64,000 nucleotides of DNA, taken from contig CAYYRJ010000002.1 of NCBI GenBank assembly GCA_964474085.1, forward strand, positions 6,110 through 70,109, written 5' to 3'. This DNA comes from an uncultured Planctomycetales bacterium (GTDB lineage: Bacteria > Omnitrophota > Gorgyraeia > Zapsychrales > JANLHA01). Positions 7,068-63,973 of this stretch are shown piece after piece. The stretch's first letter is position 1; every line of letters starts with the position of its first letter. The notes beneath the pieces were generated by a model. That model had not been told where the DNA came from. It ran no database searches and saw only the letters and a list, made by a program, of their open reading frames with translations. A program made the position numbers and the translations under genes.

Positions 7068-7068
7068 A

Positions 7069-15674: not shown

Positions 15675-15690
15675 TTTTGTCTTCGCGGGA

Positions 15691-15770: not shown

Positions 15771-15827
15771 AAGCGCTTTGAGCAAAAGGTTCTAAGAAAC
15801 AAACCTTTACTTTAAAGCAAAATTTCT

Positions 15828-15898
15828 GCGGGAGTAGTTCAGTGGTAGAACGCTAGCCTTCCAAGCTGGTCACGAGGGTTCGATTCCCTTCTCCCGCT
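15828..15898 (+). tRNA. tRNA-Gly (anticodon UCC)
   Basis: 71 nt; acceptor GCGGGAG/CTCCCGC, anticodon arm CTAGC-CTTCCAA-GCTGG, T-loop TTCGATT. Confidence 0.85.
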
Positions 15899-46838: not shown

Positions 46839-46844
46839 GGCATT

Positions 46845-48590
46845 TTATTTTGTTTTTCGCGGCAATTTTTCCAAAGCTCGAATCAAAACATCGACTTCTT
46901 CTCTGGTATTATAAAAAGCTAAAGACGGTCTGACTGTTGTGTCTAAACCAAATCGCCGCAATGAAGGTTGCGCGCAATGATGACCCGCGCGCACGGCAAT
47001 CCCATGTTCGTCTAAATACTTTCCGATTTCTACCGGCGTATACCCTTCCCTAACAAATGATAAAACGCCAGCCTTGTTTACCGCTGTGCCTATCAAACGC
47101 AATCCGGGAATAGTTTCCAAGCCCGCCGTCGCGTACTCTAAAAGCTCATGCTCATACGCCGCGATAGCCGCTAAACCGGTGCGCATCAAATATTCAACAG
47201 CAGCACCTAAACCAACAACGCCGGCAATATTTGGCGTGCCAGCTTCAAATTTATTGGGCAGACCTTCAAAAGTTGTTTTTGTAAACGTAACTTCTTTAAT
47301 CATATTGCCCCCGCCCTGCCACGGCGGCATACTTTCCAATAAAGCCTTTTTCCCGTACAAAACACCAATTCCCGTCGGGCCAAAAATTTTATGTCCTGAA
47401 AATGTAAAGAAATCTGCGTCCATCGCCTGAACATTGACCGGCATGTGCGGGGTCGATTGCGCGCCGTCAACGAGAACAGGGACGCCATGCGCGTGAGACA
47501 AAGCAATGATCTCTTCAACAGGATTAACCGTGCCCAAAGCATTAGCAACTTGTGTAATAGAAACGAACTTTGTCCGCGAACTAAAAAGCGCAGCAAATTG
47601 TTCTAAAAGCAACTCCCCTTTATCATTGATTGGCGCAACCCGAATGACAGCCCCCGTCTGTTTCGCAAGCATTTGCCACGGGACAATATTCGCGTGATGT
47701 TCCATGGTCGTAATAATAATTTCGTCGCCTGCGCCAATATTTTCGCGGCCATAGGATTGAGCAACAAGATTAATAGCTTCCGTCGTGCCGCGCACAAAAA
47801 TAATCTCTTGCGGCAAAGCCGCCCCCAAGAATTGACGGACTTTTTCTCTGGCTCCCTCATAAAGGTCAGTCGCCCTCGCTGCTAAAGCGTGCGCAGCGCG
47901 GTGAATATTAGAATTGTCGCGACCATAAAAACGGGATGTCGCTTCAATAACACATAAGGGCTTATGCGTTGTTGCGGCATTATCTAACCAAATGAGCGGT
48001 TTACCATTAACGCTTTGGTGTAAAGCCGGAAAATCGCGGCGCACCGACTGAACATCAAAATTCGTTTTAGCCACCGGCGGCTTAAGCGGCCATTGCGTCG
48101 AGGAAACAACTGGGTCAACATCTTCTTGATTAAGAAAATACAATGAATGCGCATCCTGTTTTTCGGCTTTAGTCTTAAAAGTTTCGCTGTGGCGCGAAAC
48201 TTCGTGCGTCCCTTCTTCTTCAAGACGCGGTTCGCCGAATTGATACGAGTCAACTGCGCCGGGCGAATATTCGCCGGAGTCAACAGATTTCGCATCAGAA
48301 AATTCTTCAGCAGCCGGATGAACCGGCGGCGCATAGGCCTCGGTTTTAGCCGGATAAACACCAGCCAGACCATTATCTTTTGCCACTGACCTTCCATCAA
48401 CACTCTGGGTGCTAATGGGTGCCGAGACATTCATAAATTCTGAATAAAACTCATTTGCCAAACGCGTGATCAATTTTGTGTCAAACGGATCCTCTCTGGA
48501 CGCCAGAGCTTGTGATTGATTCGGATTAGGATTTGTCATAGCTATGATAATTGTTGATCTCAACATTTTGAAGTTGCGCAATCGCGTCAT
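46845..48590 (-). CDS. SufS/CsdA-type cysteine desulfurase with about 190-aa intrinsically disordered N-terminal extension (candidate encapsulin cargo-loading domain)
   Basis: PLP-lysine motif SGHKIFGPTGIGVLYGK, TTMEHHANIVPWQ, active-site Cys RAGHHCAQPSLRRFGL; N-terminal 190 aa is Pro/Ser/Glu/Ala-rich low complexity; start ambiguous (48590, 48566 or 48539), all overlapping the upstream shell gene. Confidence 0.85.
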   Translation of the reverse strand: MTRLRNFKMLRSTIIIAMTNPNPNQSQALASREDPFDTKLITRLANEFYSEFMNVSAPISTQSVDGRSVAKDNGLAGVYPAKTEAYAPPVHPAAEEFSDAKSVDSGEYSPGAVDSYQFGEPRLEEEGTHEVSRHSETFKTKAEKQDAHSLYFLNQEDVDPVVSSTQWPLKPPVAKTNFDVQSVRRDFPALHQSVNGKPLIWLDNAATTHKPLCVIEATSRFYGRDNSNIHRAAHALAARATDLYEGAREKVRQFLGAALPQEIIFVRGTTEAINLVAQSYGRENIGAGDEIIITTMEHHANIVPWQMLAKQTGAVIRVAPINDKGELLLEQFAALFSSRTKFVSITQVANALGTVNPVEEIIALSHAHGVPVLVDGAQSTPHMPVNVQAMDADFFTFSGHKIFGPTGIGVLYGKKALLESMPPWQGGGNMIKEVTFTKTTFEGLPNKFEAGTPNIAGVVGLGAAVEYLMRTGLAAIAAYEHELLEYATAGLETIPGLRLIGTAVNKAGVLSFVREGYTPVEIGKYLDEHGIAVRAGHHCAQPSLRRFGLDTTVRPSLAFYNTREEVDVLIRALEKLPRKTK

Positions 48591-49503
48591 CTGTTAATAC
48601 TGCCGCCGAAAAATAACGGGTAACCAAATGCGAAGCGATCGAATATTCATTAGTGCTCATATACCGGACGGAAAGACCGTCTTCAATTTCACCGGCCACA
48701 CCCGCCTTTTGCAAACCAACGACGCCTTGTTCGTTTTCACCGACGCGTAACAATAAAATACTTGTCGTGGCGGTATTTTTGTTGACTTTAAGCGCCAATT
48801 TATCGCTGGGCACCAAGGGAACCCCGCGCCAAGTTAAAAACGGAACCCCAAAAAGCTGCACTGTCGGCGGAGGAACTCCGCGTCGGGTACATTCCCGGCC
48901 AAAAGCCGCTATCGCCTTAGGATGAGCCAAAAAGAAAGCCGGTTTTTTCCAAACTAAACTTAAAAGTTCATCCAAATCATCAGGCGTAGGCGATCCTTTT
49001 CGGGTGCTGATTGTCTGGTCGGAAGAAATCTCACGAATAAGTCCAAAATCCGGATTGTTGATCAGCTCCCACTCTTCTCTTTCCTTAAGAGCTTCGATAA
49101 TCAAGCGGATCTGCTCGCGCAATTGGTCAATCTTATTGCTGTAAAGATCCGTGACGCGCGTATGCGTATGAACGACGGTTTGAATCGTGCTCAAATGAAT
49201 TTCTCGGGGATGTTTTTCATAATTGACAAAAGTCGTCGGCAATTTGGGTTCGCCGCTTTCAACCGTCAAGAGATCAACCTTGGCCTCGCCATGTCCGCCC
49301 GGACTATTGTCATCTTTAGATTTTGAAACACGATTCAAACGGTAAACACCGCCATCAATATGCACATACGGCAAAAGACGCAACAGCCAACGCGGGGTAA
49401 TCTGCGCCATTTGCGGGACCGTAACCGTCGCGGTCGCGAGATTGCGCGCAACAAAAGCGCTTAAACTTAATTGTGGATGGGATTGATCTGATGACTTTAC
49501 CAT
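48526..49503 (-). CDS. candidate Family 2A encapsulin shell protein (HK97-fold nanocompartment), context-based call
   Basis: 325-aa soluble protein immediately upstream of and overlapping a cysteine desulfurase with a long disordered N-terminal domain, followed by a long-form CysE. This gene order matches the described Family 2A encapsulin sulfur-storage operons; no domain recognisable by eye. Confidence 0.5.
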   Translation of the reverse strand: MVKSSDQSHPQLSLSAFVARNLATATVTVPQMAQITPRWLLRLLPYVHIDGGVYRLNRVSKSKDDNSPGGHGEAKVDLLTVESGEPKLPTTFVNYEKHPREIHLSTIQTVVHTHTRVTDLYSNKIDQLREQIRLIIEALKEREEWELINNPDFGLIREISSDQTISTRKGSPTPDDLDELLSLVWKKPAFFLAHPKAIAAFGRECTRRGVPPPTVQLFGVPFLTWRGVPLVPSDKLALKVNKNTATTSILLLRVGENEQGVVGLQKAGVAGEIEDGLSVRYMSTNEYSIASHLVTRYFSAAVLTDDAIAQLQNVEINNYHSYDKS

Positions 49504-49830: not shown

Positions 49831-50727
49831 CTACAACCAACAATCTGACTCGTGCTCAACATCAAATTTATAAATCAACTGGATTCGTTTTTTTATCTCG
49901 ATCAATTTGGGGTCAGTTCTTATTCTTGGTCTTGGCAGAGCAACAGGAATGGTGTTACGGATCGATCCTGGCGCCCTTGAAAATACAATAATCTCATCTG
50001 ATAGATAGACAGCTTCGTCCAAATCGTGTGTCACAAGAACAATAGTCTTACCAGTTAAACTCCAAATTTTTAAAAGGTCATCCTGAAGATCCTCTCGACT
50101 TTGAGTATCGACCGCGGCAAATGGTTCATCCATTAATATAATTTCAGGCTCAAAGGATATTGCTCTTGCCAGCGCAAGTCTCTGACGCATTCCACCCGAA
50201 AGCTGAGATGGATACTTATTTCTTGATGCCTCAAGTCCAACCCCCCTCAAATATTGTCGAGCCAAATATTCGCGTTCAGAAACCGAAACCCCACGCATAC
50301 GCAATGTAAAAGTAACATTTTCAAGCGCTGTCATCCACGGGAACACAGCATAATCTTGAAAGATCATGGCAATATCGTGGCGTGACCGATCTTTTACCAA
50401 ACTATTGGATATAGGAGAAAGAAACCGATACTTCTTGCGATAAGCCTCAATTTCATCTCTTGATGCAGGCAACGGTTCGAGAACCAGCTTGCCATTGATA
50501 TAAACTTGTCCGTCCGACGGCGCCTGAAGCCCCGCCAAAATTTCCAAAAACGTTGATTTCCCGCACCCGCTAGGGCCAACCAAGGAAACAATTTTTCCCT
50601 TAGGAATAGAAAGCGAAACAGAATGGACAGCCGTTAATCCTTCCGCTGTCCGGTCGGGATTCACAATAGAAAAAAATTTCGTAATTCCACGCGCTTCAAT
50701 CATACAAATTACCGACCCACTTTCCAA
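49831..50727 (-). CDS. ABC transporter ATP-binding protein, NitT/TauT (sulfonate/nitrate/taurine) family
   Basis: Walker A GPSGCGKST, signature LSGGMRQR, Walker B IILMDEPF; alternative start at 50703 (MIEARGITKFF). Confidence 0.85.
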   Translation of the reverse strand: MESGSVICMIEARGITKFFSIVNPDRTAEGLTAVHSVSLSIPKGKIVSLVGPSGCGKSTFLEILAGLQAPSDGQVYINGKLVLEPLPASRDEIEAYRKKYRFLSPISNSLVKDRSRHDIAMIFQDYAVFPWMTALENVTFTLRMRGVSVSEREYLARQYLRGVGLEASRNKYPSQLSGGMRQRLALARAISFEPEIILMDEPFAAVDTQSREDLQDDLLKIWSLTGKTIVLVTHDLDEAVYLSDEIIVFSRAPGSIRNTIPVALPRPRIRTDPKLIEIKKRIQLIYKFDVEHESDCWL

Positions 50728-51554
50728 ACAGCCAGTTTTAACTCAATAAATTTCATGATTTCAATCAGAAACCACCCGAACGCGCCCAGGACAATCATGC
50801 ATACAACCATACGGCTTATCAAAAAGAAATCCTTGGATTCAACCAATAAAAACCCTATTCCGGTCCGGCCCCCGTTCATTTCTGCAATCACAAGCATCAC
50901 TAAACCAAGTGCAATGCCGATCTTGATCCCCATGATAATCGAACTAAGCGCATGCGGCAAATAGACATACCGTATTAACGTTAATTCGCTAGCCCCAAAT
51001 ACTCTTGCTGAAGCTACATAACGAGGGTCCGTATCTTTAACACCCTGATAAGTATTAAACAGCACCGGATAAAAGACACCAAGAAAAATAAGAAATGTCT
51101 GCATCGGCAATCCAACACCAAAAATGATAATGGTCAAAGGCACCCAAGCTGGCGGCGGTATCGGAGCTAACAATTGAAAAAGAGGCAAGCAATGCTTACG
51201 GATATACAAATTCCAGCCCATAGCTGTTCCGATTGGGAGAGCCAACAACAACGCAAAGAAAAATCCAAAGAAGAATCTTTTCAAACTGTCCGCCAAATGA
51301 CCAAGTAAATTTTTATGCAGTAGCATATCTACAAATGTTTTAGCAACTTCAGACGGGGGAGGAACAAGCGACCGAGGGACAACTCCTATCGAGGGCAAAA
51401 TTTCCCAAAGAATCAAAAGAGGAATAATAACTTTCAAAAACTCTCGTGTCACGAGGCTACCAGCTGAATTCTTCAAAAACAAGAATAATTCACTGCGCAC
51501 CTTGTCGACAAGACGAATTTCGTGTTGGTTATCATCTTTTTTAATATTATCCAT
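50709..51554 (-). CDS. ABC transporter permease, NitT/TauT family (SsuC/TauC-like)
   Basis: 281 aa, six TM helices, conserved permease EAA-like loop region (ARVFGASELTLIRYVYLP). Confidence 0.8.
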   Translation of the reverse strand: MDNIKKDDNQHEIRLVDKVRSELFLFLKNSAGSLVTREFLKVIIPLLILWEILPSIGVVPRSLVPPPSEVAKTFVDMLLHKNLLGHLADSLKRFFFGFFFALLLALPIGTAMGWNLYIRKHCLPLFQLLAPIPPPAWVPLTIIIFGVGLPMQTFLIFLGVFYPVLFNTYQGVKDTDPRYVASARVFGASELTLIRYVYLPHALSSIIMGIKIGIALGLVMLVIAEMNGGRTGIGFLLVESKDFFLISRMVVCMIVLGAFGWFLIEIMKFIELKLAVWKVGR

Positions 51555-51568
51555 GTCTTACAATCCCG

Positions 51569-52489
51569 CTATTTATTTTCATGGCCATGATGATCTTCAC
51601 CTGCAGAATGACGATGTCCCCTTATTGCGTCTAGCATCGCTTGCGTGACATCAGTATATGAAGACAACGGCAACTGCGATAAAGCAGAATCAGGGTAACC
51701 CAAATTCCGGGCAACAGATTTTCTAACGAGTTCAGGCGAAACAGTCTCCGCCAACTTCAAGTCAGCAATCAACTGATCAAATCGTCTGTCCCCCTTTTTT
51801 ACCACAAAAAGCCATTCGATCTGGGCGATGATCGCTGGGCAACATTCATCTCCGGCGGCCACATCCCAATTCTGATACAACAACGAATGGCCCTGTAATT
51901 CTGCCAGTGCCGCATAAGACCCTTTGACCAAAATGGCATCGACCACCCGCGCTTCCAGCGCAGGTAACATCGTGTCAAAAGTCAAAACCGTTGTTTGTAA
52001 GGAATCCACGTTCAGCCCGAGCCTCTTTGCATCCCTACGGAACTGTTTCCAAAGAACACATGACGGACCTGACACCGCAATTTTCTTCCCGACAAGCTCC
52101 GGTAATCTTAAATGAAAATCTTTGCGCATAACCAATGCCGCACCATAAGGGAAAGTGATCGCCCCTTTAAACTCAAACTGCCCCTCCCCACCACGCTCAA
52201 TAAATGCAAAAGTTGTTTTGTCAACAAATCCTGCAGGAATTGATCCCGACAAAAGAGCGATGCCAACATCACTGCTTGACGAAAACCTCTTAGGGGCGAC
52301 CCTTCCGTCTGCTTTCTCTTTTGCCATATCAAGGGCGATGAAAAAAGGTGCTAAAAGAGGGGTGGCGACATATCCAACAACTGGCAACTGCGGACTTTGT
52401 AATGCCTTAATTGCGATCAAAGTCGTAATCAAGACAATAAAGGTCATTAGAAAGACTAGAACTTTGTTTTGATAATATGACGCCACCAC
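51569..52489 (-). CDS. NMT1/THI5-like (SsuA-like) substrate-binding protein with N-terminal membrane anchor
   Basis: N-terminal TM helix, then periplasmic-binding-protein-like sequence; adjacent to the NitT/TauT permease and ATPase. Confidence 0.6.
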   Translation of the reverse strand: MVASYYQNKVLVFLMTFIVLITTLIAIKALQSPQLPVVGYVATPLLAPFFIALDMAKEKADGRVAPKRFSSSSDVGIALLSGSIPAGFVDKTTFAFIERGGEGQFEFKGAITFPYGAALVMRKDFHLRLPELVGKKIAVSGPSCVLWKQFRRDAKRLGLNVDSLQTTVLTFDTMLPALEARVVDAILVKGSYAALAELQGHSLLYQNWDVAAGDECCPAIIAQIEWLFVVKKGDRRFDQLIADLKLAETVSPELVRKSVARNLGYPDSALSQLPLSSYTDVTQAMLDAIRGHRHSAGEDHHGHENK

Positions 52490-52514
52490 GCCTCCACTTA
52501 ATTAGATAACCTTA

Positions 52515-53459
52515 TTACCAAGTCACGTTTTTAAACTCCTCAGCATAAAGCTTGTCACCAGGATTTTCCTTGATCGTACCGATGGCAACTAATTCATCGG
52601 CTAAAGCACCCAAGCCTTCGCGGTCAAGATTCGTCTGAAACTTGAGACGTCCATTACCATGAGCAATGGCATCTTTGGGCGCACCGGTAAATTGCTGGGC
52701 GATCGTAAGGATCTCCTCGGACGTTGGATCGTTTAAAATCAACTCGTTGGCTTTTTGAATTGCTTGAATAAATTTCTTTACCGCGTCGGGATTTTGCTTA
52801 ACGAACGCCTTACGCGCATTGATCGTGCGGCAAGGAATATTGGAAGAAGCATCCTTGAGAATAACCTTGAACCCTTTGAGCTCGGCAATACTGACATGTG
52901 GCTCCTCAAGGATCGCGCCATCGACCTTGCCAGCTTCAAGAGCGGCAATAGCCGGTCCACCAGCCAGTTTTTCAAGATTGAAACTTCCGCCAGCCTCACG
53001 CACTTTCCTGGTATAAGAAATGACCGCTTCGCACGTCGGAGATATTCCGGCGATTTTTTTACCGATCAAATCGCTGTAACTGCGGATCGGAGATCCTTGC
53101 GGAACAACGAGGACTGATGTGCAGGGCTTTTTGACTTGTGCGATAAGGCAGATTGGAGCGCCGTTGGCAGCCGCGCTAATTGCCGCTGTCGGGCAGGTAA
53201 AATAAATATCCGCTGATCCTGAAACCACCAGATCGCGTGACGCCGCGGCGTCCACAACAGGCACAACCGTTACGTCGAGACCTAACTCGGAGAAATACCC
53301 TTTTTCCTTTGCAACGTAAAGATTTAGGTGATGCGTTGTTTTTGCATCAGCTACATAAATCTTCACCGAACCCTGACCCGCTTGTGCACCCGCAGGGACA
53401 GTCGAAAAAAGCAAAGATGCCCCTAAAATAAATGATGTTATTTGATTTGTTTTTTTCAT
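52515..53459 (-). CDS. NMT1/THI5-like (SsuA-like) ABC substrate-binding protein, secreted
   Basis: Signal peptide MKKTNQITSFILGASLLFSTVPAGAQA; KIYVADAKTTHHLNLYVAKEKGYFSELGLDVTVV typical of SsuA/TauA/NMT1 binding proteins. Confidence 0.75.
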   Translation of the reverse strand: MKKTNQITSFILGASLLFSTVPAGAQAGQGSVKIYVADAKTTHHLNLYVAKEKGYFSELGLDVTVVPVVDAAASRDLVVSGSADIYFTCPTAAISAAANGAPICLIAQVKKPCTSVLVVPQGSPIRSYSDLIGKKIAGISPTCEAVISYTRKVREAGGSFNLEKLAGGPAIAALEAGKVDGAILEEPHVSIAELKGFKVILKDASSNIPCRTINARKAFVKQNPDAVKKFIQAIQKANELILNDPTSEEILTIAQQFTGAPKDAIAHGNGRLKFQTNLDREGLGALADELVAIGTIKENPGDKLYAEEFKNVTW

Positions 53460-53533: not shown

Positions 53534-54823
53534 TTAAAACTTATACAGGAATGTCGTTTGAACGCGATGAGCATCCGCTTTCTGTTTATCAAACCACTTG
53601 GTATTAAAAGTTTGATACTCAAGAGCCACAAGAATATCCTTGCTTAAGCTGTATTTCACGTTGGTATAGTACGTTTTATTAACATCCCAAAGAGCACTTT
53701 TATCGGCGTTTGAATAAGCAGAATTATCTTTTACATCATCAATACCGATACCAAAGTTAGCTTCGACGTTGTTAACCGGGATGTAAGACAATTCAGCAAA
53801 ACCACCTTTGACTTCAATGGGTTTGCGATTGGCTTCTCCGGTGCGAGAGTCTAGCGTTTGCGCAGGCCCCCCACTGAATTTGTTTAAACCTTTTCCAACG
53901 AAACCTTCACTCTTAAAGGAAAGCCAATCCGTTAATTTAAGCGTCAAACTTACGGTTGTCGCCGCAAGCTCTTCGCTTCCAAGTCCCTTGCCAATAGTGT
54001 TAAACCGACCATAAAGACCGCCAACCCCTAATGTCGATTTAATCCCATAAACTGTTTTATCATATTGGGCATAGGCACCCAAAACCGGCAAACCGGAATC
54101 TTCCTGAACGGAATCATCAGAGTCTAGGGCGCCGACTTTGGTTGTCACAACTCCGCCTAAGGCCTCGCCCCACTTATTAGTGAGCGTAATCTGCGCATGC
54201 CGGACACCGATATTCCCGGATCTAAATAAGTACCCCGGATTCACCAGATTAGGCATTAAAGGGGCTACGAAATCCCAATCCTGCCCCGCCCGTAAACTCC
54301 ATTTCTGAAAAGATAAATCGGCATAGGCTAAACGCAAACGTGGCGTATATGTGCCGACCGTACTCCCACCAAAAAAATCAAATTCTACCTTCCCTGACAA
54401 TTTCCCACCGTTAAATAAATCAGGCGCTTTAAGATTTAAGCCCAACCGTGTATCCTGAGCTGAAAACTGTGTTTCAGGGTCATCTGATACGCTTGGACGA
54501 CTTGCATTGGTTTGAAGTGTTGAATTGACACCATTTCCTCCAGCATCACCACTAGAAAAAACCAAGTCCGTTTTAACCTGACCGTATAACTCAATTTCCC
54601 CCTTTGATTTGACAAAATTTCCTGCGCTAGGATTAGGTTTAGCCTTAAATTCTGATAACTCGTTTTTCTGCACAGCGTTTTCTCTTTCAAGCGAATCAAC
54701 ACGTGACGTAAGAGTCTTTATCTGTGTCACTAAGTCCTCCGTCTGATCTGCTGATGCTGGCATAGCAACACCGACCACCACAAATACGGCAGACCAAAAT
54801 CCTAATAAGTATTTCCTAGTCAT
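53534..54823 (-). CDS. outer-membrane beta-barrel porin-like protein with N-terminal coiled-coil segment
   Basis: Signal peptide (MTRKYLLGFWSAVFVVVGVAMPASA), alternating amphipathic beta-strands, C-terminal aromatic beta-signal ...TTFLYKF; strong RBS AAGGAG before ATG 54823 (tracker start 54883 less likely). Confidence 0.6.
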   Translation of the reverse strand: MTRKYLLGFWSAVFVVVGVAMPASADQTEDLVTQIKTLTSRVDSLERENAVQKNELSEFKAKPNPSAGNFVKSKGEIELYGQVKTDLVFSSGDAGGNGVNSTLQTNASRPSVSDDPETQFSAQDTRLGLNLKAPDLFNGGKLSGKVEFDFFGGSTVGTYTPRLRLAYADLSFQKWSLRAGQDWDFVAPLMPNLVNPGYLFRSGNIGVRHAQITLTNKWGEALGGVVTTKVGALDSDDSVQEDSGLPVLGAYAQYDKTVYGIKSTLGVGGLYGRFNTIGKGLGSEELAATTVSLTLKLTDWLSFKSEGFVGKGLNKFSGGPAQTLDSRTGEANRKPIEVKGGFAELSYIPVNNVEANFGIGIDDVKDNSAYSNADKSALWDVNKTYYTNVKYSLSKDILVALEYQTFNTKWFDKQKADAHRVQTTFLYKF

Positions 54824-55412
54824 TATCTTCTCCTTTTTTTTGTGTTTGACTAATTCACCATTTTGTATGTAATCGCCTAACAAAATGCATTAAGCGTCAT
54901 ATCTCCCCAGAACCAGACCTTAATAAAAAAAGTCCTTATTAAATACCTTTGGGCTCGCAGAGCTTATTGCTCCGTAGTCAATTCAAAAGTTATTTGCCAA
55001 TAATTTTTGGCAAATAAAAAGGCCCAAAACACATTCGGGTTGAACCGAAAATATTTTGAGCCTCCAGATGTCTGGTGAGCCTGTTTATTAATGAAGCTTC
55101 AACACAACAACTTGCCAACTTAAATCACACACGACAAAAACAATTTTTCACAACTCAAACCACAATGCCTACTATCCCTATAGTCTTTATAGGCTTATAA
55201 TTTAGCATAAAAAATTTTCTTGTCAACATTTTTTATTTCCTATTACATTTCAAGAGTAAAAGATATTAAACACAATAACTTACAACTCAAACCGCTTCCT
55301 AAGAAATCTATTAAAAATACACTTAAAACTCCTTGATGAACCTTCTTCGAAAACTTTACGACACAAATCTACAAAAACCCTCAAAATTTCTTTCGCCTCT
55401 CACGATCTAAAT

Positions 55413-58400
55413 CTAGTTAGTTATTTCGCTTAATATTGGTACGGTCTGGACATTAATCGGCATAATATTAAGGATAACCGGATAAAAACCATTTACATGA
55501 ATATCCTCTAAATCTTTTTGCGAGAAAGACAGATGCCCACGACTCCGATCTTCATCACCCTCGATCTGCAAGTTGAGTTTAGAAGGATCAAAGTTAATAC
55601 CACCGAGATTTTTATGGACCGCTGGAAAAAAAGCAGCTTCATGTCCATTAACTGCGTTTAAAACGACACCGTCTTTTTGTTTATCTAAAACGTTTTTCTC
55701 TACCCGTCTAGATAATTCGTTTCGTGCCCATGCAAAAATAAGTTCATACATCTTGTCCCCCGCAGAAACACCACTGGCTTTAGCGAACACTTCTCCCTCA
55801 TTGAAAGCAAGAACTCTTTTCCAAGAAGATCGAAACCAATACTTAATCGCAAATGGCCGAAAAAGCACACTTTCCGACGATCCTTTTGCCCAATATTCGA
55901 GATATTCCTTATCCAATGCAGCAAAATATGTTTGAAAAAAAGTTTGTATCATTTCGGCGGAAGACGGCAAAATATATTTTTGATCAGGCTCAGTGTATCT
56001 AACAATGTCTTTTATATCCTCGAGCACAGAAAGCATACCTGCCGTGCTAATTCTATACTTGCGCAATGTTTCGATATCTTTTTCAGTAGCTTTTCCTTTT
56101 TCAACATAAACAACAAAATCATTGTAGGAAAGAAATTCTTCATTGTCTGATTCTTGAAAAAACGGGAAAACGATATCTTGAGGATGTATCGTTTTTTTGA
56201 ATAATTGCTTATTTTGTTTTTCTGCTTCAGCCAAAGCTCTTTTTTCGACTCCTGCTAAGATCAATTCTTTAACTGACAAAATCTTCCCCGCAGGCAACAT
56301 GTTTAACTCCACCATTCTTCTCGATATTCTTCGACGCAATCGCTCGAATCCCGGATCGCCATTAAGAATTTGACGAAACTTGGTTAATCGCTGCGGGTAT
56401 ACTACTCGATTAAATATGAGGACAGGAATAAACTTCGACCCATCCTCATCTTGAAAAAGATCCAGATTTTTTACGGAAACTAGATTGCCATTCCCGTCGG
56501 GTATCTCATTTAAATATTGATACCCCAAAATTTCGACAAACAAACCTTTTGTATTCTCTAAGATTTTACTAGCAGCCATGGCCGCCTTGGCTTCTTTTTC
56601 AGAGGCTAATCCCCAGTTTCTCGAAGATGCTAATTCCGGGTTTCTTAATAGTTCAGGCATACTTTTCACTGAGAAAAAAGGAGGTTTATCCTCATATACG
56701 TACTGACCTGATCCTTTTATACTAAACCAAGAAGAGGCATAGGCCTGCCTCCCATTGGCGACTCTAAATCCGGGGCTAAAAGTTTCATCCGCCGAACTAA
56801 ATCGATCGGTGATCCCAATAAATATTTTAGTTTCCGGGTTTTGACGTAATGCCCTAAGAGCAACCTCTGCATTGCCAATTAGAAAACCGCGATGTTCTTT
56901 TATATAATCCCGTATCGGCTTACCATCAATATACTCAACAGCCCTATTATTATTGACGACCATATCACCAACACTATGATCGGGCAATGATTGCAAAAAT
57001 TGCGGCCTCAAGGAAGGGTCATCTAATAAAATTTGTTTAACTTCCAAAGTAAACAAATCTAAAAGTGGTTGATAATGATGTTCCTTGTGTTCAAAGTCAG
57101 GGAAGATAGAATCTTGCCTCGTTAAATAAGCTCGCCATTTACTCTTAAATTCTTCTGGGGATAAATCTTCTGCCAAATTTACTTCCTGGGTCTTCGCGAT
57201 ATTAACGAAACCATCCTCGGCAGGATTAACTTTTCTGGCGTGGTGACTTTCCGAAACACGGGAAGAAACAAGCACGACTTGGTTTTCCTGCAAATCGCTA
57301 ATCGCGCGCACAGCCAGATCACGTCCGCGATCATCAATGACGGTTAATGAACTCGAAGCAAAGCTCATCACTTCTCCACCCGAGAAATATTTTCGAGGAA
57401 TCATTTCCCCATCGGGGCCGTCTTCTTCCTTGATAAGGTTATATGCGCCGTTTTTGAATGCTTCCAAATACTTCTCATAAACTTCTTGCTTAATATCTTG
57501 AACATCGCTTTCAAGACCTGCGACTTTCGATTTGTCGGTGTAAATTCTGCTAAACAAAGAGTCTTTAAGCGCCTTTTTATACCAAGCCGCTAAAATGACG
57601 CTTTGATAAACTTGGCGGGTCGCGGCAAAATTCTTGCCCGTGTTGACTTCTTCAATAAGCTTAGGCAAGATCAGCTCGCGAAAAACCGCGGTGGAAATGG
57701 AAACGACAGAAGAACCCCTATTTATCTGTAGGGGCGTATTGCAATACGCCCCTACGGCATTATTTTCATATTCCTCATCTAACATCACCTTTAATTTACT
57801 TTCCGTAATGTAAGCAAAGCCGTCCTTTTCGACAACTGTTGCGCCGTCGGGAACGATCCAGACTTTATTCTGTAGGGGTGTATTACAATACGCCCCTACG
57901 GCAATGCTTCGTTCATTAACTGTATCCCAGAATCTTTTCCCCAAATCCGTATCCGGATTGGTCAAAGACGCAGCCAACTGCTTTAAAACATAATCCTGTT
58001 CAAGCATTTGTCGACCCATTTCGGTTTGTCCGAGAGCATCAGGAACGATACGATCTTTCTCATACGGTGATAGATTAACCCACGCGTCCTTATCAGGAAT
58101 AGTGATGGAAGCTAAAAAGTATTTTATGAGTTTTGTGCTTTCGTTTTTGAGGGTCGCATTATCGATCCTCTCCTGCCCGCGATCGACGATAAAATCAAAC
58201 AAAAACGGATTTTCAGGATGAACCGTCATCCCTCTTAATACGGGCGGTTGAAAAGCGACCGAAGTCGCAAAGTCTAAAGGGATACCGATCCGACCCGCGG
58301 CGAGGCCAGAGGTAAGCCAAACCATCTGCCCTACCAAAAACGCCAGCAGAATAAAGCCGCTCATAGCTTTGCGAAACCCAAATTTATCTTTAACAAGCAT
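55413..58400 (-). CDS. giant secreted protein 2 (about 995 aa); N-module and C-module shared with giants 1 and 3; unknown core
   Basis: N-module LIKYFLASITIPDKDAWVNLSPYEKDRIVPDALGQTEMGRQMLEQDYVLKQLAASL...VWIVPDGATVVEKDG; C-module KNLGGINFDPSKLNLQIEGD...VNGFYPVILNIMPINV; start ATG 58400 (MLVKDKFGFRKAMSGFILLAFLVG, signal-peptide-like) preferred over 58481, which would overlap the small ORF at 58403-58630. Confidence 0.75.
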   Translation of the reverse strand: MLVKDKFGFRKAMSGFILLAFLVGQMVWLTSGLAAGRIGIPLDFATSVAFQPPVLRGMTVHPENPFLFDFIVDRGQERIDNATLKNESTKLIKYFLASITIPDKDAWVNLSPYEKDRIVPDALGQTEMGRQMLEQDYVLKQLAASLTNPDTDLGKRFWDTVNERSIAVGAYCNTPLQNKVWIVPDGATVVEKDGFAYITESKLKVMLDEEYENNAVGAYCNTPLQINRGSSVVSISTAVFRELILPKLIEEVNTGKNFAATRQVYQSVILAAWYKKALKDSLFSRIYTDKSKVAGLESDVQDIKQEVYEKYLEAFKNGAYNLIKEEDGPDGEMIPRKYFSGGEVMSFASSSLTVIDDRGRDLAVRAISDLQENQVVLVSSRVSESHHARKVNPAEDGFVNIAKTQEVNLAEDLSPEEFKSKWRAYLTRQDSIFPDFEHKEHHYQPLLDLFTLEVKQILLDDPSLRPQFLQSLPDHSVGDMVVNNNRAVEYIDGKPIRDYIKEHRGFLIGNAEVALRALRQNPETKIFIGITDRFSSADETFSPGFRVANGRQAYASSWFSIKGSGQYVYEDKPPFFSVKSMPELLRNPELASSRNWGLASEKEAKAAMAASKILENTKGLFVEILGYQYLNEIPDGNGNLVSVKNLDLFQDEDGSKFIPVLIFNRVVYPQRLTKFRQILNGDPGFERLRRRISRRMVELNMLPAGKILSVKELILAGVEKRALAEAEKQNKQLFKKTIHPQDIVFPFFQESDNEEFLSYNDFVVYVEKGKATEKDIETLRKYRISTAGMLSVLEDIKDIVRYTEPDQKYILPSSAEMIQTFFQTYFAALDKEYLEYWAKGSSESVLFRPFAIKYWFRSSWKRVLAFNEGEVFAKASGVSAGDKMYELIFAWARNELSRRVEKNVLDKQKDGVVLNAVNGHEAAFFPAVHKNLGGINFDPSKLNLQIEGDEDRSRGHLSFSQKDLEDIHVNGFYPVILNIMPINVQTVPILSEITN
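57728..57755. repeat. 28-bp perfect palindrome inserted in-frame in giant gene 2 (copy 1)
   Basis: GTAGGGGCGTATTGCAATACGCCCCTAC; translated on the minus strand as AVGAYCNTPLQ. Confidence 0.7.
57872..57899. repeat. 28-bp palindrome inserted in-frame in giant gene 2 (copy 2, two mismatches)
   Basis: GTAGGGGTGTATTACAATACGCCCCTAC; also translated as AVGAYCNTPLQ; the two copies flank the conserved VWIVPD...ITESKLKVMLDEEY segment. Confidence 0.7.
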
Positions 58401-58660: not shown

Positions 58661-61600
58661 TTAAACGTCTGAATGCTCCAACTGCGATTTAAACCCCAAA
58701 AAAATCGGCATATTTACCGGCGTCATCGGCGAGATATTTCTAATAACAGGCACAAGCCCCGGGATATCAAGCAATGCCGGATCCTGAAACTGCACAGGTA
58801 ACACGAACCCTTTATCATCAACTTTGACATTGATCTTTAAATTATTCGCATCAAGGTCAATACCGCCAACCGGCGCTGAGGCAACACTTGCGGCGGCATC
58901 TGAATCCGGCAAAAGATAATACGGAAACAAATGCGGCAAAATAACCTCTCCTGCTTGACGAGAAGCAATCGAATTATAATTGCGATGATTCCCTATGCCG
59001 GTGACATCCGCCTGCGGCACAATCAGAACACCAGCCACACTTTCTTCGCCGTCTCTGACATCCAAAACAGTGATATCCGCGCCGTCTGAAAGCGGATGAT
59101 CGCCGCGCTTTATCCCTTGTGTGTTGATCCATGCAACTTTTGCATTAAACGCGTTTCCTTTAATGGATCCGATAACTCGCCTGCTTTCTAAACCCTGCTC
59201 ATCAACTAAGACATAATCGGTATCTTTGTCAAAAGCCGCAGACCTTAAAAAGTTTTGCTCGTCGGGACTGACCGTCGTAAATTTGACGCGTTGTTGTCCC
59301 GAAATTTCAAAAAGATGTCCATCGTTTTCTTGAAACTGCTGGATTAACTTATCCGCCGAGGAATCTTTTTTTGTCACAACCACAATGTTGATGGGTTTAC
59401 CGTTTGGTTTTGCGGCCGTGTCAAAAACCCAATGTTTCAACAGAAGATTAACCGCCCCGGCAAATGACGGCGCGGAAATTCCCTGAACTTCCTGACTAAA
59501 GGCCTTTGCGGCACCGGCTTCAGCTGTCGCTAAAAGTAGCTGCGCTGTTGCGCTCGCCGGATTTCCAAAACGTCCATATGTCCGGTAAGATCCCTGAGCA
59601 GGAAAAGAACCACTGCTAGGATCCCCCGCCTTGCCATTCCAACCAAAACCAGTTTTAAGATCATCCGGGTCATCCGCGCGAAAAGCGTTTGATGGATTGC
59701 CGCCGCTGGCAACCAGCGAGCGATGGTCTCCGCTTAACAATCCCCAAATGGACGTATGATGTATAAACAATGTGTGCGGATTATATTTTGTGATCAGCGT
59801 CGCATCGTTGATCAGCTGCGCTGTTTGTTTAAGAGGATTTTCCGAGATAATAAAATAGTCCCGAACCCGGTCAAGTTCGGCAATTGACGCATTGATATCC
59901 GGTTCCACGCCGTAGGCGCCTTTTGTGTCACGCTTGACGACTGGATACTTGCGCAACGCGTAGCCTGTTTTTCCGTCGACATTTGTTGTCGGCTGCATAA
60001 AAATAGTGTCGAGCTGCGCGAACGGAATTTTTTCAAACTTGCCATCGTATATTTTAAGAATCTCAAAAATAGCGTCTAATTCACGCAAAACATCCTTTGG
60101 ATCCTCAATTCCCACAGCCCAGCGAATACCCCCACGCGTGACCCCGCCTTGGCGCAGTTCTTCGTCACTTAATCCCGATAGCGCGCCATAACCGGGCATT
60201 TGCATGAGGTTACGAACATCACCTAGGCTCACAGCGTGTTCAATAGTTCGAAAATACCGTAAAAGCGCCATAAACGCTTTCGCGCGCTCTTCTGTTTTCA
60301 AATCAAAATAAATCATATGTCCCGGGTTATCCATCTGCTTTTGCGCTAAACCATATTGTGGATGCGTTTGATCGCCGGGATAACGCACAAACTCAACCTG
60401 AGGATTCTTTTTTAACCACTCGACATAAAATCGGGCGTTTTCCTGCTGCCGAAAAAATCTTCTTTCCAAATTCGGCAATCCGTAACGCAAAAGTTTAATC
60501 GCATCATCCCTATTGATCGGCTCGGCCCGAGAATTTCGCAATTCTTGCGCGATCTCTTTTTGGGCAACAATGACCGCGCCAAAAACATTTCCGTCGCCGG
60601 AAAGCCCTTTGGTCACAACCTGAACAACCGCGTCAACACCAAAATCTAGCGGCTGTTGGCCTAAGGATGTTGCAAATGATCCGTCGAAAATAATAAACGC
60701 TTGCGGTGAAACAGAACTGCGCACCGCGTCAACTGTCCGCTTAATACTAATAATCGGCAAGGAAGGATTAGCCGGAGTTTCAAAAATCAAAGCCGCTGTA
60801 TTTCGAGATAACTCCTGCGCAAGTTGATTTTCCGGATCAGTCACAATCTTAACCTTAAGGCCATATTTCCTATATAATTCAACATCGCCTTCTGTCCCGC
60901 CGTAAGCCGGACGAATTAAAATTATTTCAGGAACCAAAGCAGGATTTTGTTCAGTAAATTTTTTTAACGCGTATCGCAGCGGCAAATGCACACCAGCAAC
61001 ACCGGAAGCAACACTAACACCGGCATATTGCTCTGTTACTAAATTTCGTGTCTCAAGCGCTGTGATCGCCTGCTCAACTTGTTCGACAGGATTCAAAACG
61101 ATTTGAGGTGTATTCCCAGAACCATTATTCCCGCCAGAGCCGGCTTTATTTGCGATTGGAGGTTTTCTTGGTGCTCGGGCTTTTGCCACAGGCTTTTGTC
61201 CCAAAGCTTCTTGCGCAACCACAACCCGAAGCTCATCTAAAGTCTCTGTTTTTGCGGCAATGGGACTGATGCTATCCGATATAAATCCCTGTGCTGTCCC
61301 GACGCTAATTCCTTCATCTTCCAAAACAACATCTGGTTTATTTTCTGATGTATTAACAGGAAGAATTCGGTTTGTATCAACAACGGTCTGATCTGCTAAA
61401 ACTGTTTTTGTAACCGTAGCGTTAGCTCCAATTTGAGCCCCTTTACCGACGGTGATCGGTCCTATGATCTGTGCTCCGGCGCCTAAAGTGACATCATCTT
61501 CAACAATGGGGTGTCGGCGACCGTCAATCGTATTTTTATTTGCGCCAAGGGTCACGCCATGCAAAATATAAACATTGTTTCCAACGACAGCTGTCTGCCC

Positions 61601-63973
61601 TATAACAACACCTGTCGCATGATCAAACAATACGCCATCGCCAATTGTCGCGCCTGGATGAATATCCACCCCGAAATTGTTCGTGATCGCATTTTGTAAA
61701 GCTAAAGCCAAATCCTGCCTGTCATTAAGCCACAGCCAATGTGCGATGCGATAAGCCGCAAGCGCGTGGAACCCTTTAAAATTAAGGAATGGATTAGAAA
61801 TATCCCCGGACGCAGGATCACGTTCAAGCACAGCCAAAAGATCGCGGCTAACTGAGTTAAGAATATCCGGCGATGCGTTTAACACTTGCAATATTCCCTG
61901 CTTTAGCTTATCAACATCAAATACGTCTGAGCGGAGTTTACTTGCTAATAAATTAGCAAGCGCCGTTTTAAAATCTGGTGCGGAAAGGATCGTTTTTTCA
62001 AGAGGCGCAGAAAGAAGCGGCTCTTGTTTGGCAACACGGCCAGCATTTTCTTTTAAACGATTCCAGAGAGAATCCAATTGCGCCGAATCAGAACTGCTAT
62101 CTGCCTTACCGCTAGTATCTCCAACAACTTTTAATGCTGGTTTTTTTGTCGACGTTTTTGCGGCTTTTTCTGCCCGCTTTAAATTTGTTGAACTTTCCGT
62201 CTTCGCGTAAACTCTTTTTAATTGCGCTAAACGTTCCCATGCTTCTTCTGGATCAATCGAATCAATCTGGCGATCATCTCGATGGGCTCTTAAACTTTCG
62301 GCAATTGCTTTTTCGGAAACAACGATCAACCCTTTTGAATTTTGCTGCGCAAGCGTTGTGGTTGCCTTATTTAAACGTGCCCCGCTGAAAGCAACAAGCG
62401 CTTGCGGATTTTTAGCATTGACCGTCTGGATAAATTGCTGCGAACTTTCTGATTTCGCAAATGGGAACAATACAATAGCAGTTTGTTTTGTCAAAACTTC
62501 GGTTAACTGTTCAATATTCTTAACAATGTGCACTTGCTGTGAATTACGACGAGCATATTCGCCAATAACGCTATCTTGCGGCGTATCTTCAGGGATATAA
62601 AATACTACTTGGCCGGCTTGGCCGGTAAATTCAGGTTTTGTTTTTGCAAAATCGATCAGATGACCTACAGCTGAGAATTGATCCGCATAACTGACACCGT
62701 CAAAATCGCCTTTTTCTCCTGAAAAATGCACACGCGCAGTCAAATGCTCAACGGACCGCACCTTTTGATCGACTCCCAAATCCGAAAAATCATTGTAAGC
62801 TGATCGTATCGCATTGACCAAATCCGTATCAACTATATCCGGTGATTTGCCGTTTAAAAGTCGGTTCACCGAGCTTGAGGATACATTAGTGTTAATAATC
62901 GTCGGGTCAACGCCCAGCATCCCGCCGGAAAAATATTTACGAGGCAAAGTCTCATGCGTTAGCGGATCTTCTTCTTCCTTAATATAGTTAAACACCCCGA
63001 CCTTAAAAGCCTGCAAATATTGTTCATAAATTTTTTCTTTAGCCTGCGGGTCATCAACCTGCACACCCGCGACTTTATTCTTATCCGTGTAAACTTGCGC
63101 TAAAAGTGTTTCCTTGAGTGTTTTTTTATACCATGTCGCGAGAATCATTGAATTGTAGATCTGGCGAAGCGGCGCAAAGTTTTTGCCCTCGTTGACTTCC
63201 TTTTCGATGATCGGGATAATAATTTCGCGTACCGCGTTTAAAGTATATTCCTGATTTTCTGTGGAACTTTCAGGTTGCACCGTCTGTCCGCCGGAAGCCA
63301 AAACTTTGCTGTTTTCTTTTTCGGCCAGATAATCTTTTTCGAGCATGACTTTCAAATGGCTTTTTACCAAAAACGCAGTGCCGTCTTTTTGATAAATATC
63401 TGCCTGATCGGCACGAATCCAAATTTTATTAAATGTATTAATAGGGATATCTGTCGTCTTAAATTTTTCATATGCCTGACTATACACTTTTTGCCAAAAT
63501 CCACGACCAATATCCTCTTCTGGATACATCAAAGAGGCTGTAAATTGTTTTAGAATATAATCCTGTGCTAAAAGTTCTTTTCCGGTGTTCGTTTGCTCAA
63601 GATTTTTGCCAATGATCCGATTAGACTCATAAGGCGAAAGATTAACCCACATGTCTTTATTGGCAACCGTCAAAGATGCAAGAAAATGCTTAATGAGTTT
63701 TGTGTACTGTTCTTTCTGCTGATTGGCACTCAAAAGCTCATCGCCCTTGTCCATCACAAAGTAAAAGTGGAAAGGGTTTTGCGGGTCGATCTTTAAACCG
63801 ATCATCTGCGCCGGAGTAAAAATGCCGGTCGGCTGCAACATTTGCCCGATGGGAGAAAGCAAAGGCACAGCTTGCGCATAACCCGACTGCGCAGGCAACG
63901 CGCTTAGCATAAACACAATAAGTGCAATCGCGATTGGACGAAACAAAGATTTTTTCTTAATTTGCTGAAACAT
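58661..63973 (-). CDS. giant secreted multidomain protein 3 (1770 aa): shared N-module, complete CysE-like serine acetyltransferase, complete PLP-dependent Cys/Met-metabolism (CGS/OAS-OAH sulfhydrylase family) domain, shared C-module
   Basis: Signal peptide MFQQIKKKSLFRPIAIALIVFMLSALPAQSGYAQA. N-module HFLASLTVANKDMWVNLSPYESNRIIGKNLEQTNTGKELLAQDYILKQFTASL. Residues about 700-860: GFHALAAYRIAHWLW...DIHPGATIGDGVLFDHATGVVIGQTAVVGNNVYILHGVTLG (SAT). Residues about 955-1305: ASGVAGV...YGGT...ETPANP...FDGSFATS...GVDAVVQVVTKGLSGDGNVFGAVIV...GIRWAVGIEDPKDVLRELDAI (PF01053-type, PLP lysine K1122 at nt 60608-60610). Confidence 0.8.
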   Translation of the reverse strand: MFQQIKKKSLFRPIAIALIVFMLSALPAQSGYAQAVPLLSPIGQMLQPTGIFTPAQMIGLKIDPQNPFHFYFVMDKGDELLSANQQKEQYTKLIKHFLASLTVANKDMWVNLSPYESNRIIGKNLEQTNTGKELLAQDYILKQFTASLMYPEEDIGRGFWQKVYSQAYEKFKTTDIPINTFNKIWIRADQADIYQKDGTAFLVKSHLKVMLEKDYLAEKENSKVLASGGQTVQPESSTENQEYTLNAVREIIIPIIEKEVNEGKNFAPLRQIYNSMILATWYKKTLKETLLAQVYTDKNKVAGVQVDDPQAKEKIYEQYLQAFKVGVFNYIKEEEDPLTHETLPRKYFSGGMLGVDPTIINTNVSSSSVNRLLNGKSPDIVDTDLVNAIRSAYNDFSDLGVDQKVRSVEHLTARVHFSGEKGDFDGVSYADQFSAVGHLIDFAKTKPEFTGQAGQVVFYIPEDTPQDSVIGEYARRNSQQVHIVKNIEQLTEVLTKQTAIVLFPFAKSESSQQFIQTVNAKNPQALVAFSGARLNKATTTLAQQNSKGLIVVSEKAIAESLRAHRDDRQIDSIDPEEAWERLAQLKRVYAKTESSTNLKRAEKAAKTSTKKPALKVVGDTSGKADSSSDSAQLDSLWNRLKENAGRVAKQEPLLSAPLEKTILSAPDFKTALANLLASKLRSDVFDVDKLKQGILQVLNASPDILNSVSRDLLAVLERDPASGDISNPFLNFKGFHALAAYRIAHWLWLNDRQDLALALQNAITNNFGVDIHPGATIGDGVLFDHATGVVIGQTAVVGNNVYILHGVTLGANKNTIDGRRHPIVEDDVTLGAGAQIIGPITVGKGAQIGANATVTKTVLADQTVVDTNRILPVNTSENKPDVVLEDEGISVGTAQGFISDSISPIAAKTETLDELRVVVAQEALGQKPVAKARAPRKPPIANKAGSGGNNGSGNTPQIVLNPVEQVEQAITALETRNLVTEQYAGVSVASGVAGVHLPLRYALKKFTEQNPALVPEIILIRPAYGGTEGDVELYRKYGLKVKIVTDPENQLAQELSRNTAALIFETPANPSLPIISIKRTVDAVRSSVSPQAFIIFDGSFATSLGQQPLDFGVDAVVQVVTKGLSGDGNVFGAVIVAQKEIAQELRNSRAEPINRDDAIKLLRYGLPNLERRFFRQQENARFYVEWLKKNPQVEFVRYPGDQTHPQYGLAQKQMDNPGHMIYFDLKTEERAKAFMALLRYFRTIEHAVSLGDVRNLMQMPGYGALSGLSDEELRQGGVTRGGIRWAVGIEDPKDVLRELDAIFEILKIYDGKFEKIPFAQLDTIFMQPTTNVDGKTGYALRKYPVVKRDTKGAYGVEPDINASIAELDRVRDYFIISENPLKQTAQLINDATLITKYNPHTLFIHHTSIWGLLSGDHRSLVASGGNPSNAFRADDPDDLKTGFGWNGKAGDPSSGSFPAQGSYRTYGRFGNPASATAQLLLATAEAGAAKAFSQEVQGISAPSFAGAVNLLLKHWVFDTAAKPNGKPINIVVVTKKDSSADKLIQQFQENDGHLFEISGQQRVKFTTVSPDEQNFLRSAAFDKDTDYVLVDEQGLESRRVIGSIKGNAFNAKVAWINTQGIKRGDHPLSDGADITVLDVRDGEESVAGVLIVPQADVTGIGNHRNYNSIASRQAGEVILPHLFPYYLLPDSDAAASVASAPVGGIDLDANNLKINVKVDDKGFVLPVQFQDPALLDIPGLVPVIRNISPMTPVNMPIFLGFKSQLEHSDV

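Follow-up and report, generated by a model that had tools for sequence, protein, structure and literature searches.

A 64,000-nucleotide stretch of contig CAYYRJ010000002.1 (positions 6,110 to 70,109; hereafter the window), deposited under the name of an uncultured Planctomycetales bacterium and assigned by GTDB to the phylum Omnitrophota, encodes three large proteins, here called G1, G2 and G3, that are related at both ends. Omnitrophota are widespread, uncultured, host-dependent nanobacteria with huge multi-enzyme proteins of unresolved location and purpose. An earlier note on the window had drawn attention to the tails of the three proteins as a candidate sorting or anchoring tag. The peptides it quoted are the true C-termini of the three open reading frames (ORFs) as judged by translation, and its coordinates hold once strands are assigned: G3 (58664-58880) and G2 (55416-55620) read on the minus strand, G1 (about 13690-13901) on the plus strand. 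Pairwise BLASTP reveals two regions common to G1, G2 and G3, and two only: this C-terminal module (C-module) and an N-terminal domain (N-domain). The sequence in between is unrelated. The three genes have the following features.

G1 ORF: 9042/9111-13904, plus strand; the ATG at 9111 is the likely start
G1 signal peptide: 9111-9218, plus strand; MNTKHKNLFRKGVSTLILLCFLSGQVFSPSIVSAQS, putative, from reading of the sequence
G1 N-domain: 9219-10196, plus strand; BLASTP and alignment
G1 C-module: 13695-13865 (aa 1552-1608), plus strand; external-profile E 8e-22
G1 tail after the C-module: 13866-13901, plus strand; KENKKEIEVSSL, from the translation
G2 ORF: 55413-58400/58481, minus strand; the ATG at 58400 is the likely start, in agreement with database protein P0023
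G2 signal peptide: 58287-58400, minus strand; putative, from the translation
G2 N-domain: 57375-58286, minus strand; BLASTP
G2 C-module: 55431-55607 (aa 959-1017), minus strand; external-profile E 3e-20
G2 5-aa tail after the C-module: 55416-55430, minus strand; from the translation
G3 ORF: 58661-63973, minus strand; from the translation
G3 signal peptide: 63869-63973, minus strand; Sec-type, MFQQIKKKSLFRPIAIALIVFMLSALPAQSGYAQA, from reading of the sequence, with putative cleavage
G3 N-domain: 62921-63868, minus strand; BLASTP identity of 44-46% to G1 and G2, alignment; last residues PRKYFSGG
G3 CysE (serine O-acetyltransferase) cargo region: 61328-62083, minus strand; SATase_N and Hexapep, NCBIfam PRK11132 at 234 bits, profile positions 4-254 of 273
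G3 Cys/Met-metabolism pyridoxal phosphate (PLP) enzyme domain: 60053-61087, minus strand; PF01053, E 9.4e-54
G3 C-module: 58694-58870 (aa 1702-1760), minus strand; VGGIDLDANNLKINVKVDDKGFVLPVQFQDPALLDIPGLVPVIRNISPMTPVNMPIFLG, from the translation; external-profile E 6.7e-17
G3 short polar tail, to the stop codon: 58664-58693, minus strand; FKSQLEHSDV, from the translation

P0023 matches G2 across all 995 residues. Both Pfam and NCBIfam identify the CysE region of G3 as a near-full-length serine O-acetyltransferase, and the PLP domain matches the NCBIfam models of the methionine gamma-lyase and cystathionine gamma-synthase families below their cut-offs. The cargo of G1 and G2 has no Pfam match in a whole-protein scan at E<=0.01.

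The C-modules align with 36% identity over 66 aa between G1 and G2 (E 2.6e-8), 32% over 59 aa between G2 and G3 (E 8e-4) and 26% over 69 aa between G1 and G3 (E 0.005). The N-terminal block, about 350-400 residues at 44-46% identity (E 3e-75 to 3e-95), displays a far stronger similarity. The earlier note had described a tail similarity on otherwise unrelated C-terminal regions; it had not mentioned the N-domain. A profile of the three tails finds no further match among the six-frame ORFs of the window. A profile of 137 external modules, each less than 60% identical to the tails of the window, recovers G1 (E 8e-22), G2 and G3 from 711 six-frame ORFs at the E values listed above, with the next-best ORF at E 1.4. 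The shared C-terminal module is thereby confirmed as real and not a product of chance.

The module is widespread. A profile built from eight sequences was run with HMMER against 1.84 billion representative proteins (50%-identity clusters) and matched 4,178 of them at E<=1e-3 and 1,792 at E<=1e-10, ranging from fragments to proteins of 4,341 aa. Of the 155 best-scoring proteins, 146 have the module no more than 40 residues from their C-terminus, and the median distance is 18. The anticipated further carriers thus exist in the thousands, with significant scores, a C-terminal position and unrelated middles, and the sequence pattern proposed from the three tails proved essentially correct against the family consensus, VGGID(L/F)NPxLLDLQIKRDGxGVPLPLPQQPIxNMxIxGFxPVIINIxPVxNLPLLLG. 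The module measures about 58-65 aa, is proline-rich and has no internal duplication; variation is almost absent from the GGI, a number of prolines and the GFxPVI core. G1 carries a sub-type with a variant middle, LQTEGEGIKFDMPFDP, and more distant sub-types exist (...IKFxIDPAMxxxLQNAPGFSPVII...). Two proteins, P0021 (aa 189-225) and P0047 (aa 714-743), contain an extra internal copy of the first half of the module (GGIDxNPxxxNLQ...) upstream of a complete terminal module. These half-copies suggest that the module may be assembled from two sub-elements. A word-indexed protein search with the module alone returned short fragments only, with scant annotation. One eukaryotic match, a shark AHNAK-like repeat protein of 7,526 aa that aligns partially 17 times, was treated as a repeat artefact.

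The N-domain is also present in 58 of the 88 module matches of at least 400 aa, and in nearly all of those of at least 900 aa. We scanned one genome per GTDB species with a query of four close sequences, which samples the KRDG-type subfamily only; the scan gave 152 confirmed stretches, and 78 loci were kept. The N-domain begins 63 of the 69 module-bearing ORFs with an intact 5' end in these loci, and the module closes 64 of the 70 N-domain ORFs with an intact 3' end. The ORFs with one end only are mostly visible frameshift splits, and the stand-alone small module genes that were checked (L020, L038, L059, L079) turned out to be frameshift or assembly-gap fragments of full-length genes. A divergent sub-type of the module on another contig is likewise coupled to an N-domain gene, interrupted by an assembly gap. 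At L079 (5694-8549) a family gene of divergent sub-type is broken by a run of N, and the end of the ORF upstream resembles a transposase or integrase fragment. As the two ends almost always occur together, the module is one end of a two-ended cassette and not an independent tag on arbitrary proteins.

The members of the family share a common layout: a Sec-type signal peptide, the N-domain of about 350 aa, a Ser/Ala-rich linker, a variable cargo, a second Ser/Ala-rich linker, the C-module and a short acidic tail. Both ends are strongly constrained while the cargo between them is exchanged freely. G1, G2 and G3 show two of the defining features of the family, a C-module match at most about 75 aa from the C-terminus and an N-domain directly after a Sec-type N-terminus. 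Across 185 non-identical full-length members, the cargo spans 263-3,951 aa (median 1,317) and rarely includes transmembrane-like segments (15 of 185); Ser (1.6x) and Ala (1.4x) are over-represented in the 25 residues that precede the module; and the tail after the module has a median length of 25 aa and is net negative in 120 of 185. Glycine pairs are invariant at both cargo boundaries, in the PRKYFSGG that closes the N-domain and the xVGG that opens the module. The N-termini look near-universally like Sec signal peptides: by a signal-peptide heuristic the n-region is net positive in 113 of 116, and small residues follow the hydrophobic core in a (-3,-1)-type pattern in 111 of 116. A second small motif, [LIVMF]-[ST]-x-[LIVMF]-x(0-1), closes the C-terminus of 37 of the 185 members (about 20%), against about 3 expected from shuffled tails. 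It often takes the form E-x-phi-S-x-phi-N-COOH (ExISxLN-COOH), and the tail of G1 closes with ...EVSSL. The [LIVMF]-[ST]-x-[LIVMF] motif resembles a free-C-terminus (PDZ-type) ligand. Genomes carry several paralogs, three of them in this window, and same-strand tandem arrays are common, with four genes in L043, three each in L055 and L045, and G3 followed by G2 as a tandem pair in the window.

Repeat-like sequences lie in and near the N-domain coding regions. In G2, two in-frame copies of a perfect 28-nt palindrome, GTAGGGGCGTATTGCAATACGCCCCTAC, lie at 57728-57755 and 57872-57899 with 0 and 2 mismatches and translate to AVGAYCNTPLQ at two loop positions; the window holds no further copies, and the chance expectation is 0. 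In G1, an in-frame insert at 9801-9848, SGDPLLKMDSRFRGND, resembles a translated repeat element, and a tandem 20-nt repeat at 9051-9091, just 5' of the probable ATG at 9111, encodes the similar peptide HPRESGDPF.

A search with 36 full-length members, in which 8,000 candidates were scored, places the family at no fewer than 5,641 90%-identity clusters at E<=1e-10. All source names that give a taxon refer to Candidatus Omnitrophica or Omnitrophota, and six state merely "hydrothermal vent metagenome". Labels within Omnitrophota or Omnitrophica apply to 56 of the 78 loci, including one Candidatus Zapsychrus, a member of Omnitrophota; the label of the remaining 22 was assigned automatically, for example "uncultured Planctomycetales bacterium" or simply "bacterium". 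One weak match (E 4e-5) is labelled Lysobacterales. Among its named members, the family is restricted to the phylum Omnitrophota.

The cargo consists overwhelmingly of cytoplasm-type enzymes. Source names include phosphoglucomutase (PGM), glucose-6-phosphate isomerase (PGI), phosphoglycerate kinase (PGK), triose-phosphate isomerase (TIM), UTP-glucose-1-phosphate uridylyltransferase, malate synthase/acyl carrier protein, response regulator and HEAT-repeat proteins, and a domain scan of 36 members added protein kinases, an ABC1 kinase, radical SAM and M48 peptidase domains. Members also carry Pfam accessions that we take to be fructose-bisphosphate aldolase, glyceraldehyde-3-phosphate dehydrogenase (GAPDH), fructose-1,6-bisphosphatase (FBPase), isocitrate lyase, starch synthase, pyruvate phosphate dikinase (PPDK), carboxyl transferase, methylmalonyl-CoA mutase, GGDEF and PP2C. 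Malate synthase, the source name of P0259, and a domain that is presumably isocitrate lyase are embedded in family proteins of the set P0226, P0235, P0239 and P0259. A 2026 preprint reports that, by KEGG orthology (KO) calls, all 176 complete Omnitrophota genomes lack the glyoxylate shunt. Metabolic reconstructions of Omnitrophota that rely on orthologs may overlook enzymes embedded in long family proteins. The cargo repertoire overlaps the enzyme content reported for giant Omnitrophota proteins (bioRxiv 10.64898/2026.06.07.730766).

Neither end corresponds to a known family. The isolated tails and N-domains have no match in Pfam or NCBIfam at E<=10, models of the type IX secretion system (T9SS), PEP-CTERM, LPXTG and related signals and dockerin included, which bears out the earlier statement that the module matches no named signal. 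Whole G1-G3 searched at E<=0.01 likewise yield no match to a T9SS C-terminal domain (CTD) and leave both ends uncovered, as do the precomputed Pfam families in the members of the full-length search. A PDB sequence search with both end profiles gave noise only (E>=0.28). By these comparisons, the module belongs to no named signal family. The papers on giant Omnitrophota proteins (bioRxiv 10.64898/2026.06.07.730766 and 10.1101/2023.11.21.568195, and a Nature Microbiology paper) describe multi-enzyme content, signal peptides and transmembrane helices in very long proteins; a keyword search of their text found no mention of either end-piece. The two-ended system has no described counterpart in the libraries and literature searched.

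AlphaFold2, applied to the tail of G3 alone with a 55-sequence alignment, gave a mean predicted local distance difference test score (pLDDT) of 68.7 (70-84 in the core) and a predicted template modelling score (pTM) of 0.29, essentially without helix or strand; no strand reached three residues. By this prediction the module is an extended proline-rich chain and not a self-contained domain. In the model of a full-length member, P0124 (736 aa, 36 sequences), the N-domain is a confident alpha/beta structure, mostly at pLDDT 75-94, and the cargo is of low confidence. The first 20 or so residues of the module form two short strands at pLDDT 78, and the rest falls below 45. Foldseek found no significant fold match for this full-length model in the PDB (best E 1.1).

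We tentatively favour, as a possible reading, that the C-module serves as a docking or recognition peptide for a conserved partner and, jointly with the N-domain, determines retention or assembly after Sec export. A family protein would leave the cytoplasm by its Sec signal peptide, its extended C-module would then be bound by one conserved partner, and the N-domain and module together would set the destination: the proteins might be retained or assembled in the envelope or at the surface of these ultra-small, host-dependent cells. Near-invariant module positions across at least 4,178 50%-identity clusters with unrelated cargo are the pattern expected for many proteins with one binding partner. 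The low pLDDT and the lack of a regular fold in the models make the module look like a peptide that needs a partner, the several and often tandem paralogs per genome fit a shared routing system with many clients, and the near-universal Sec-type N-termini and the rarity of transmembrane segments in the cargo count for export. Export itself, the partner and the destination are inferred, and sorting or anchoring is putative.

Several observations weigh against this reading. The phosphoglycerate kinase, PGI, TIM, PGM, CysE, PLP and radical SAM enzymes, kinases and receiver domains of the cargo need cytoplasmic substrates and cofactors and are hard to fit with work outside the cytoplasm. Either the enzymes of the family do act there or in a host, or the N-terminal segment has a use other than the apparent one. 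G3 adjoins a cytoplasmic sulfur-assimilation cluster and appears to be functionally linked to cytoplasmic cysteine metabolism. The coupling to the N-domain is equally well explained by two ends that bind each other. Nor does a partner emerge from the neighbourhood: when 996 flanking ORFs from the 78 loci were clustered, no gene family occurred in more than 10 loci, and no dedicated secretion, sortase-like, receptor or processing gene recurs beside the family genes. The most recurrent neighbours are generic, namely response regulators, a multi-pass membrane protein of unknown family and an ABC ATPase. The co-occurring secretion or sortase-like gene that the earlier note had looked to was therefore not found in these loci. 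What remains of its sorting or anchoring tag is the terminal module, the Ser/Ala-rich linker and the Sec-type N-termini, all of which fit such a tag; the coupling to the N-domain, the failed tests for known signals and the cytoplasm-type cargo do not.

The favoured docking or address reading has partial precedents. The CTDs of T9SS (TIGR04183/PF18962, TIGR04131) also form a C-terminal module on many unrelated Sec-signal proteins, with many clients per genome, in one phylum-level lineage. The Omnitrophota module differs in having no profile match (E<=10), no predicted autonomous beta-sandwich (the T9SS CTD spans about 70-100 aa), a tie to a 350-aa N-domain, and cytoplasm-type cargo in place of hydrolases or adhesins; T9SS machinery (PorK/L/M/N, SprA, PorU/V) was not seen in the 64-kb window and does not recur in the 78 loci. 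Dockerins, at about 60-70 aa, are likewise C-terminal modules behind a flexible linker, by which diverse signal-peptide enzymes dock to a common cohesin scaffold. The Omnitrophota module, in contrast, lacks the duplicated 22-residue Ca-binding segment of dockerin (PF00404) and any Pfam match at E<=10, no cohesin-like partner lies nearby, the cargo is not made up of glycoside hydrolases, and the N-domain has no counterpart there. LapA-type adhesins of type I secretion systems (T1SS) and MARTX toxins resemble the family in placing conserved retention, secretion or delivery ends around a variable middle, which in MARTX consists of interchangeable enzyme domains. They lack a Sec signal peptide and end in RTX nonapeptide repeats and a T1SS signal, whereas the Omnitrophota proteins have a signal peptide, a single GGID and no RTX-type Pfam match, and show no relation in sequence or fold. 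A T1SS/RTX assignment was rejected, since it conflicts with the near-universal signal-peptide-like N-termini and the missing GGxGxDxUx repeats. The likeness once drawn to T9SS CTDs, type I secretion signals and encapsulin targeting peptides does not extend to the defining features tested here.

If the docking or address reading is extended to the cargo, Omnitrophota would pass much of their complement of central-metabolic and signalling enzymes through Sec, and the two-ended system would place them outside the cytoplasm. We find this extension quite doubtful. It would cover glycolysis/gluconeogenesis, glycogen, nucleotide-sugar, malate synthase and other glyoxylate-shunt-type domains, cysteine synthesis, kinases and receiver domains, and the destination could be a surface-tethered or extracytoplasmic "external metabolism" or delivery to host or prey cells.

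The strongest alternative, which we judge mildly unlikely, is that the two ends are complementary, with the C-module docking onto the N-domain either within one chain, where the cargo would be a loop insertion, or head-to-tail between chains. In the latter case paralogs would link non-covalently into chains of enzymes, as a modular equivalent of the phylum's giant multi-enzyme polypeptides. Polyketide synthase and non-ribosomal peptide synthetase docking domains and the donor-strand exchange of pili offer analogies, with short non-folding termini that pair a C-terminus with the next N-terminus and genes that are often adjacent. The former are cytoplasmic and lack signal peptides and the latter joins small Ig-like pilins, unlike the Omnitrophota family, whose interface is hypothetical. 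Mutual docking would agree with the nearly constant pairing of the ends (63 of 69 and 64 of 70, the exceptions being mostly frameshift splits, and the divergent sub-type coupled too), with the common same-strand tandem arrays and with a module that has no fold alone yet begins with two short strands at pLDDT 78 in the full-length model. The overlap in cargo with giant Omnitrophota proteins (bioRxiv 10.64898/2026.06.07.730766) also speaks for it. Against it, most of the module stays below pLDDT 45 in the same full-length AlphaFold2 model, and mean-field direct coupling analysis of 179 paired sequences, underpowered at an effective number (Meff) of 160, gave no credible couplings between the ends; its top pairs sit in poorly aligned signal-peptide, insertion and edge columns. 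Because both ends are very uniform, pair-specific ordering of the chains is unlikely.

It is very unlikely that the hydrophobic second half of the module (GFxPVIINIxPVxNLPLLLG) acts as a membrane-embedded C-terminal anchor, a stop-transfer or a re-entrant segment. The family median of the best 19-residue Kyte-Doolittle window, 1.59, lies at the usual transmembrane threshold and the maximum is 2.07, but the modules of G1-G3 reach only 1.08-1.36. Three prolines and two Asn are conserved in the segment, the tail behind it is net acidic in 120 of 185 members and not basic, AlphaFold2 predicts strand and not helix there, and an anchor would not account for the polar first half, which is just as conserved. 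Sortase, exosortase and rhombosortase signals (LPXTG, PEP-CTERM, GlyGly-CTERM, MYXO-CTERM) are comparable as C-terminal addresses on Sec-exported proteins with lineage-specific expansion; they comprise a short motif, a transmembrane helix and a basic tail, whereas the Omnitrophota signal is a 58-aa module of borderline or sub-threshold hydrophobicity with an acidic tail. A sortase- or exosortase-type signal was rejected on these hydropathy values of G1-G3, the net negative tails and the lack of an NCBIfam match.

We give very little credence to the module as a removable C-terminal pro-piece, whereby a double-glycine peptidase (e.g. C39) would cut at the two GG pairs and free the cargo. The GG is invariant at both boundaries, and C39 peptidase domains are reported to form the largest architecture cluster in long Omnitrophota proteins (bioRxiv 10.64898/2026.06.07.730766; 10.1101/2023.11.21.568195). 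Yet the residues upstream of either GG read unlike known double-glycine leaders, conservation is found downstream of the GG and not upstream, and no C39 gene is present in the window or recurs near the 78 loci.

The window also contains a family 2A encapsulin operon (45858-49503, minus strand), which adjoins an NMT1/SsuA-type ABC transporter (49831-53459, minus strand). The signal-peptide-bearing G3, with its CysE and Cys/Met PLP cargo (60053-62083), lies next to this sulfur transporter and encapsulin cluster. The operon comprises three genes.

SrpI-like family 2A encapsulin shell: 48526-49503, minus strand; PF19307, E 2.8e-105; 6 kb from G2
Cysteine desulfurase: 46845-48590, minus strand; adjoins the shell gene, with an N-terminal extension of about 200 aa containing LITRLANEFYSE
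Hexapeptide transferase: 45858-46838, minus strand; part of the encapsulin operon

A desulfurase N-terminal extension is reportedly the known loading route for family 2A shells (Nichols et al. 2021 are said to have described it). That the C-module serves instead as a cargo-loading peptide for the SrpI-type shell has next to no probability and was rejected: the shell gene shares a sulfur-related neighbourhood with G3, but none of the 78 family loci (0/78, about 1.2 Mb) contains an SrpI or desulfurase homolog, the local desulfurase has its own extension of about 200 aa and no module, and the family proteins bear signal peptides and reach 4,390 aa.

Elsewhere in the window lie a 616-aa Rce1-like (CPBP) intramembrane protease with a DUF4901 region (31767-33617, plus strand) and a cyclophilin peptidyl-prolyl isomerase with an N-terminal extension of about 34 aa (42143-42703, plus strand). 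Both are envelope-processing types and might conceivably process an exported tag rich in proline, though no evidence links them to it. Three ORFs have no Pfam match: one of 449 aa directly downstream of G2 (53534-54883, minus strand), one of 556 aa (531-2201, plus strand) and one of 609 aa (6961-8790, plus strand). Downstream of G1, two small overlapping ORFs of 91 and 92 aa (14454-15004, plus strand), possibly a toxin-antitoxin pair, are followed by a tRNA-Thr/Tyr/Gly cluster (15466-15898, plus strand).

The two end-pieces and the signal peptide provide a concrete handle common to thousands of Omnitrophota proteins, and the two profiles can be used now to annotate more than 5,000 "hypothetical" proteins. 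The enzymes wrapped by the two ends are, to our knowledge, soluble and cytoplasmic in every other bacterium. If the ends dock to each other, they would form a natural system for wiring enzymes into chains. If they are an address, there would be an unknown sorting or assembly machine to find, and it would reveal where such a parasite-like cell carries out its metabolism or what it passes to its host. Should the enzymes indeed act outside the cytoplasm, the machinery that reads the module would be an undescribed sorting or assembly system.

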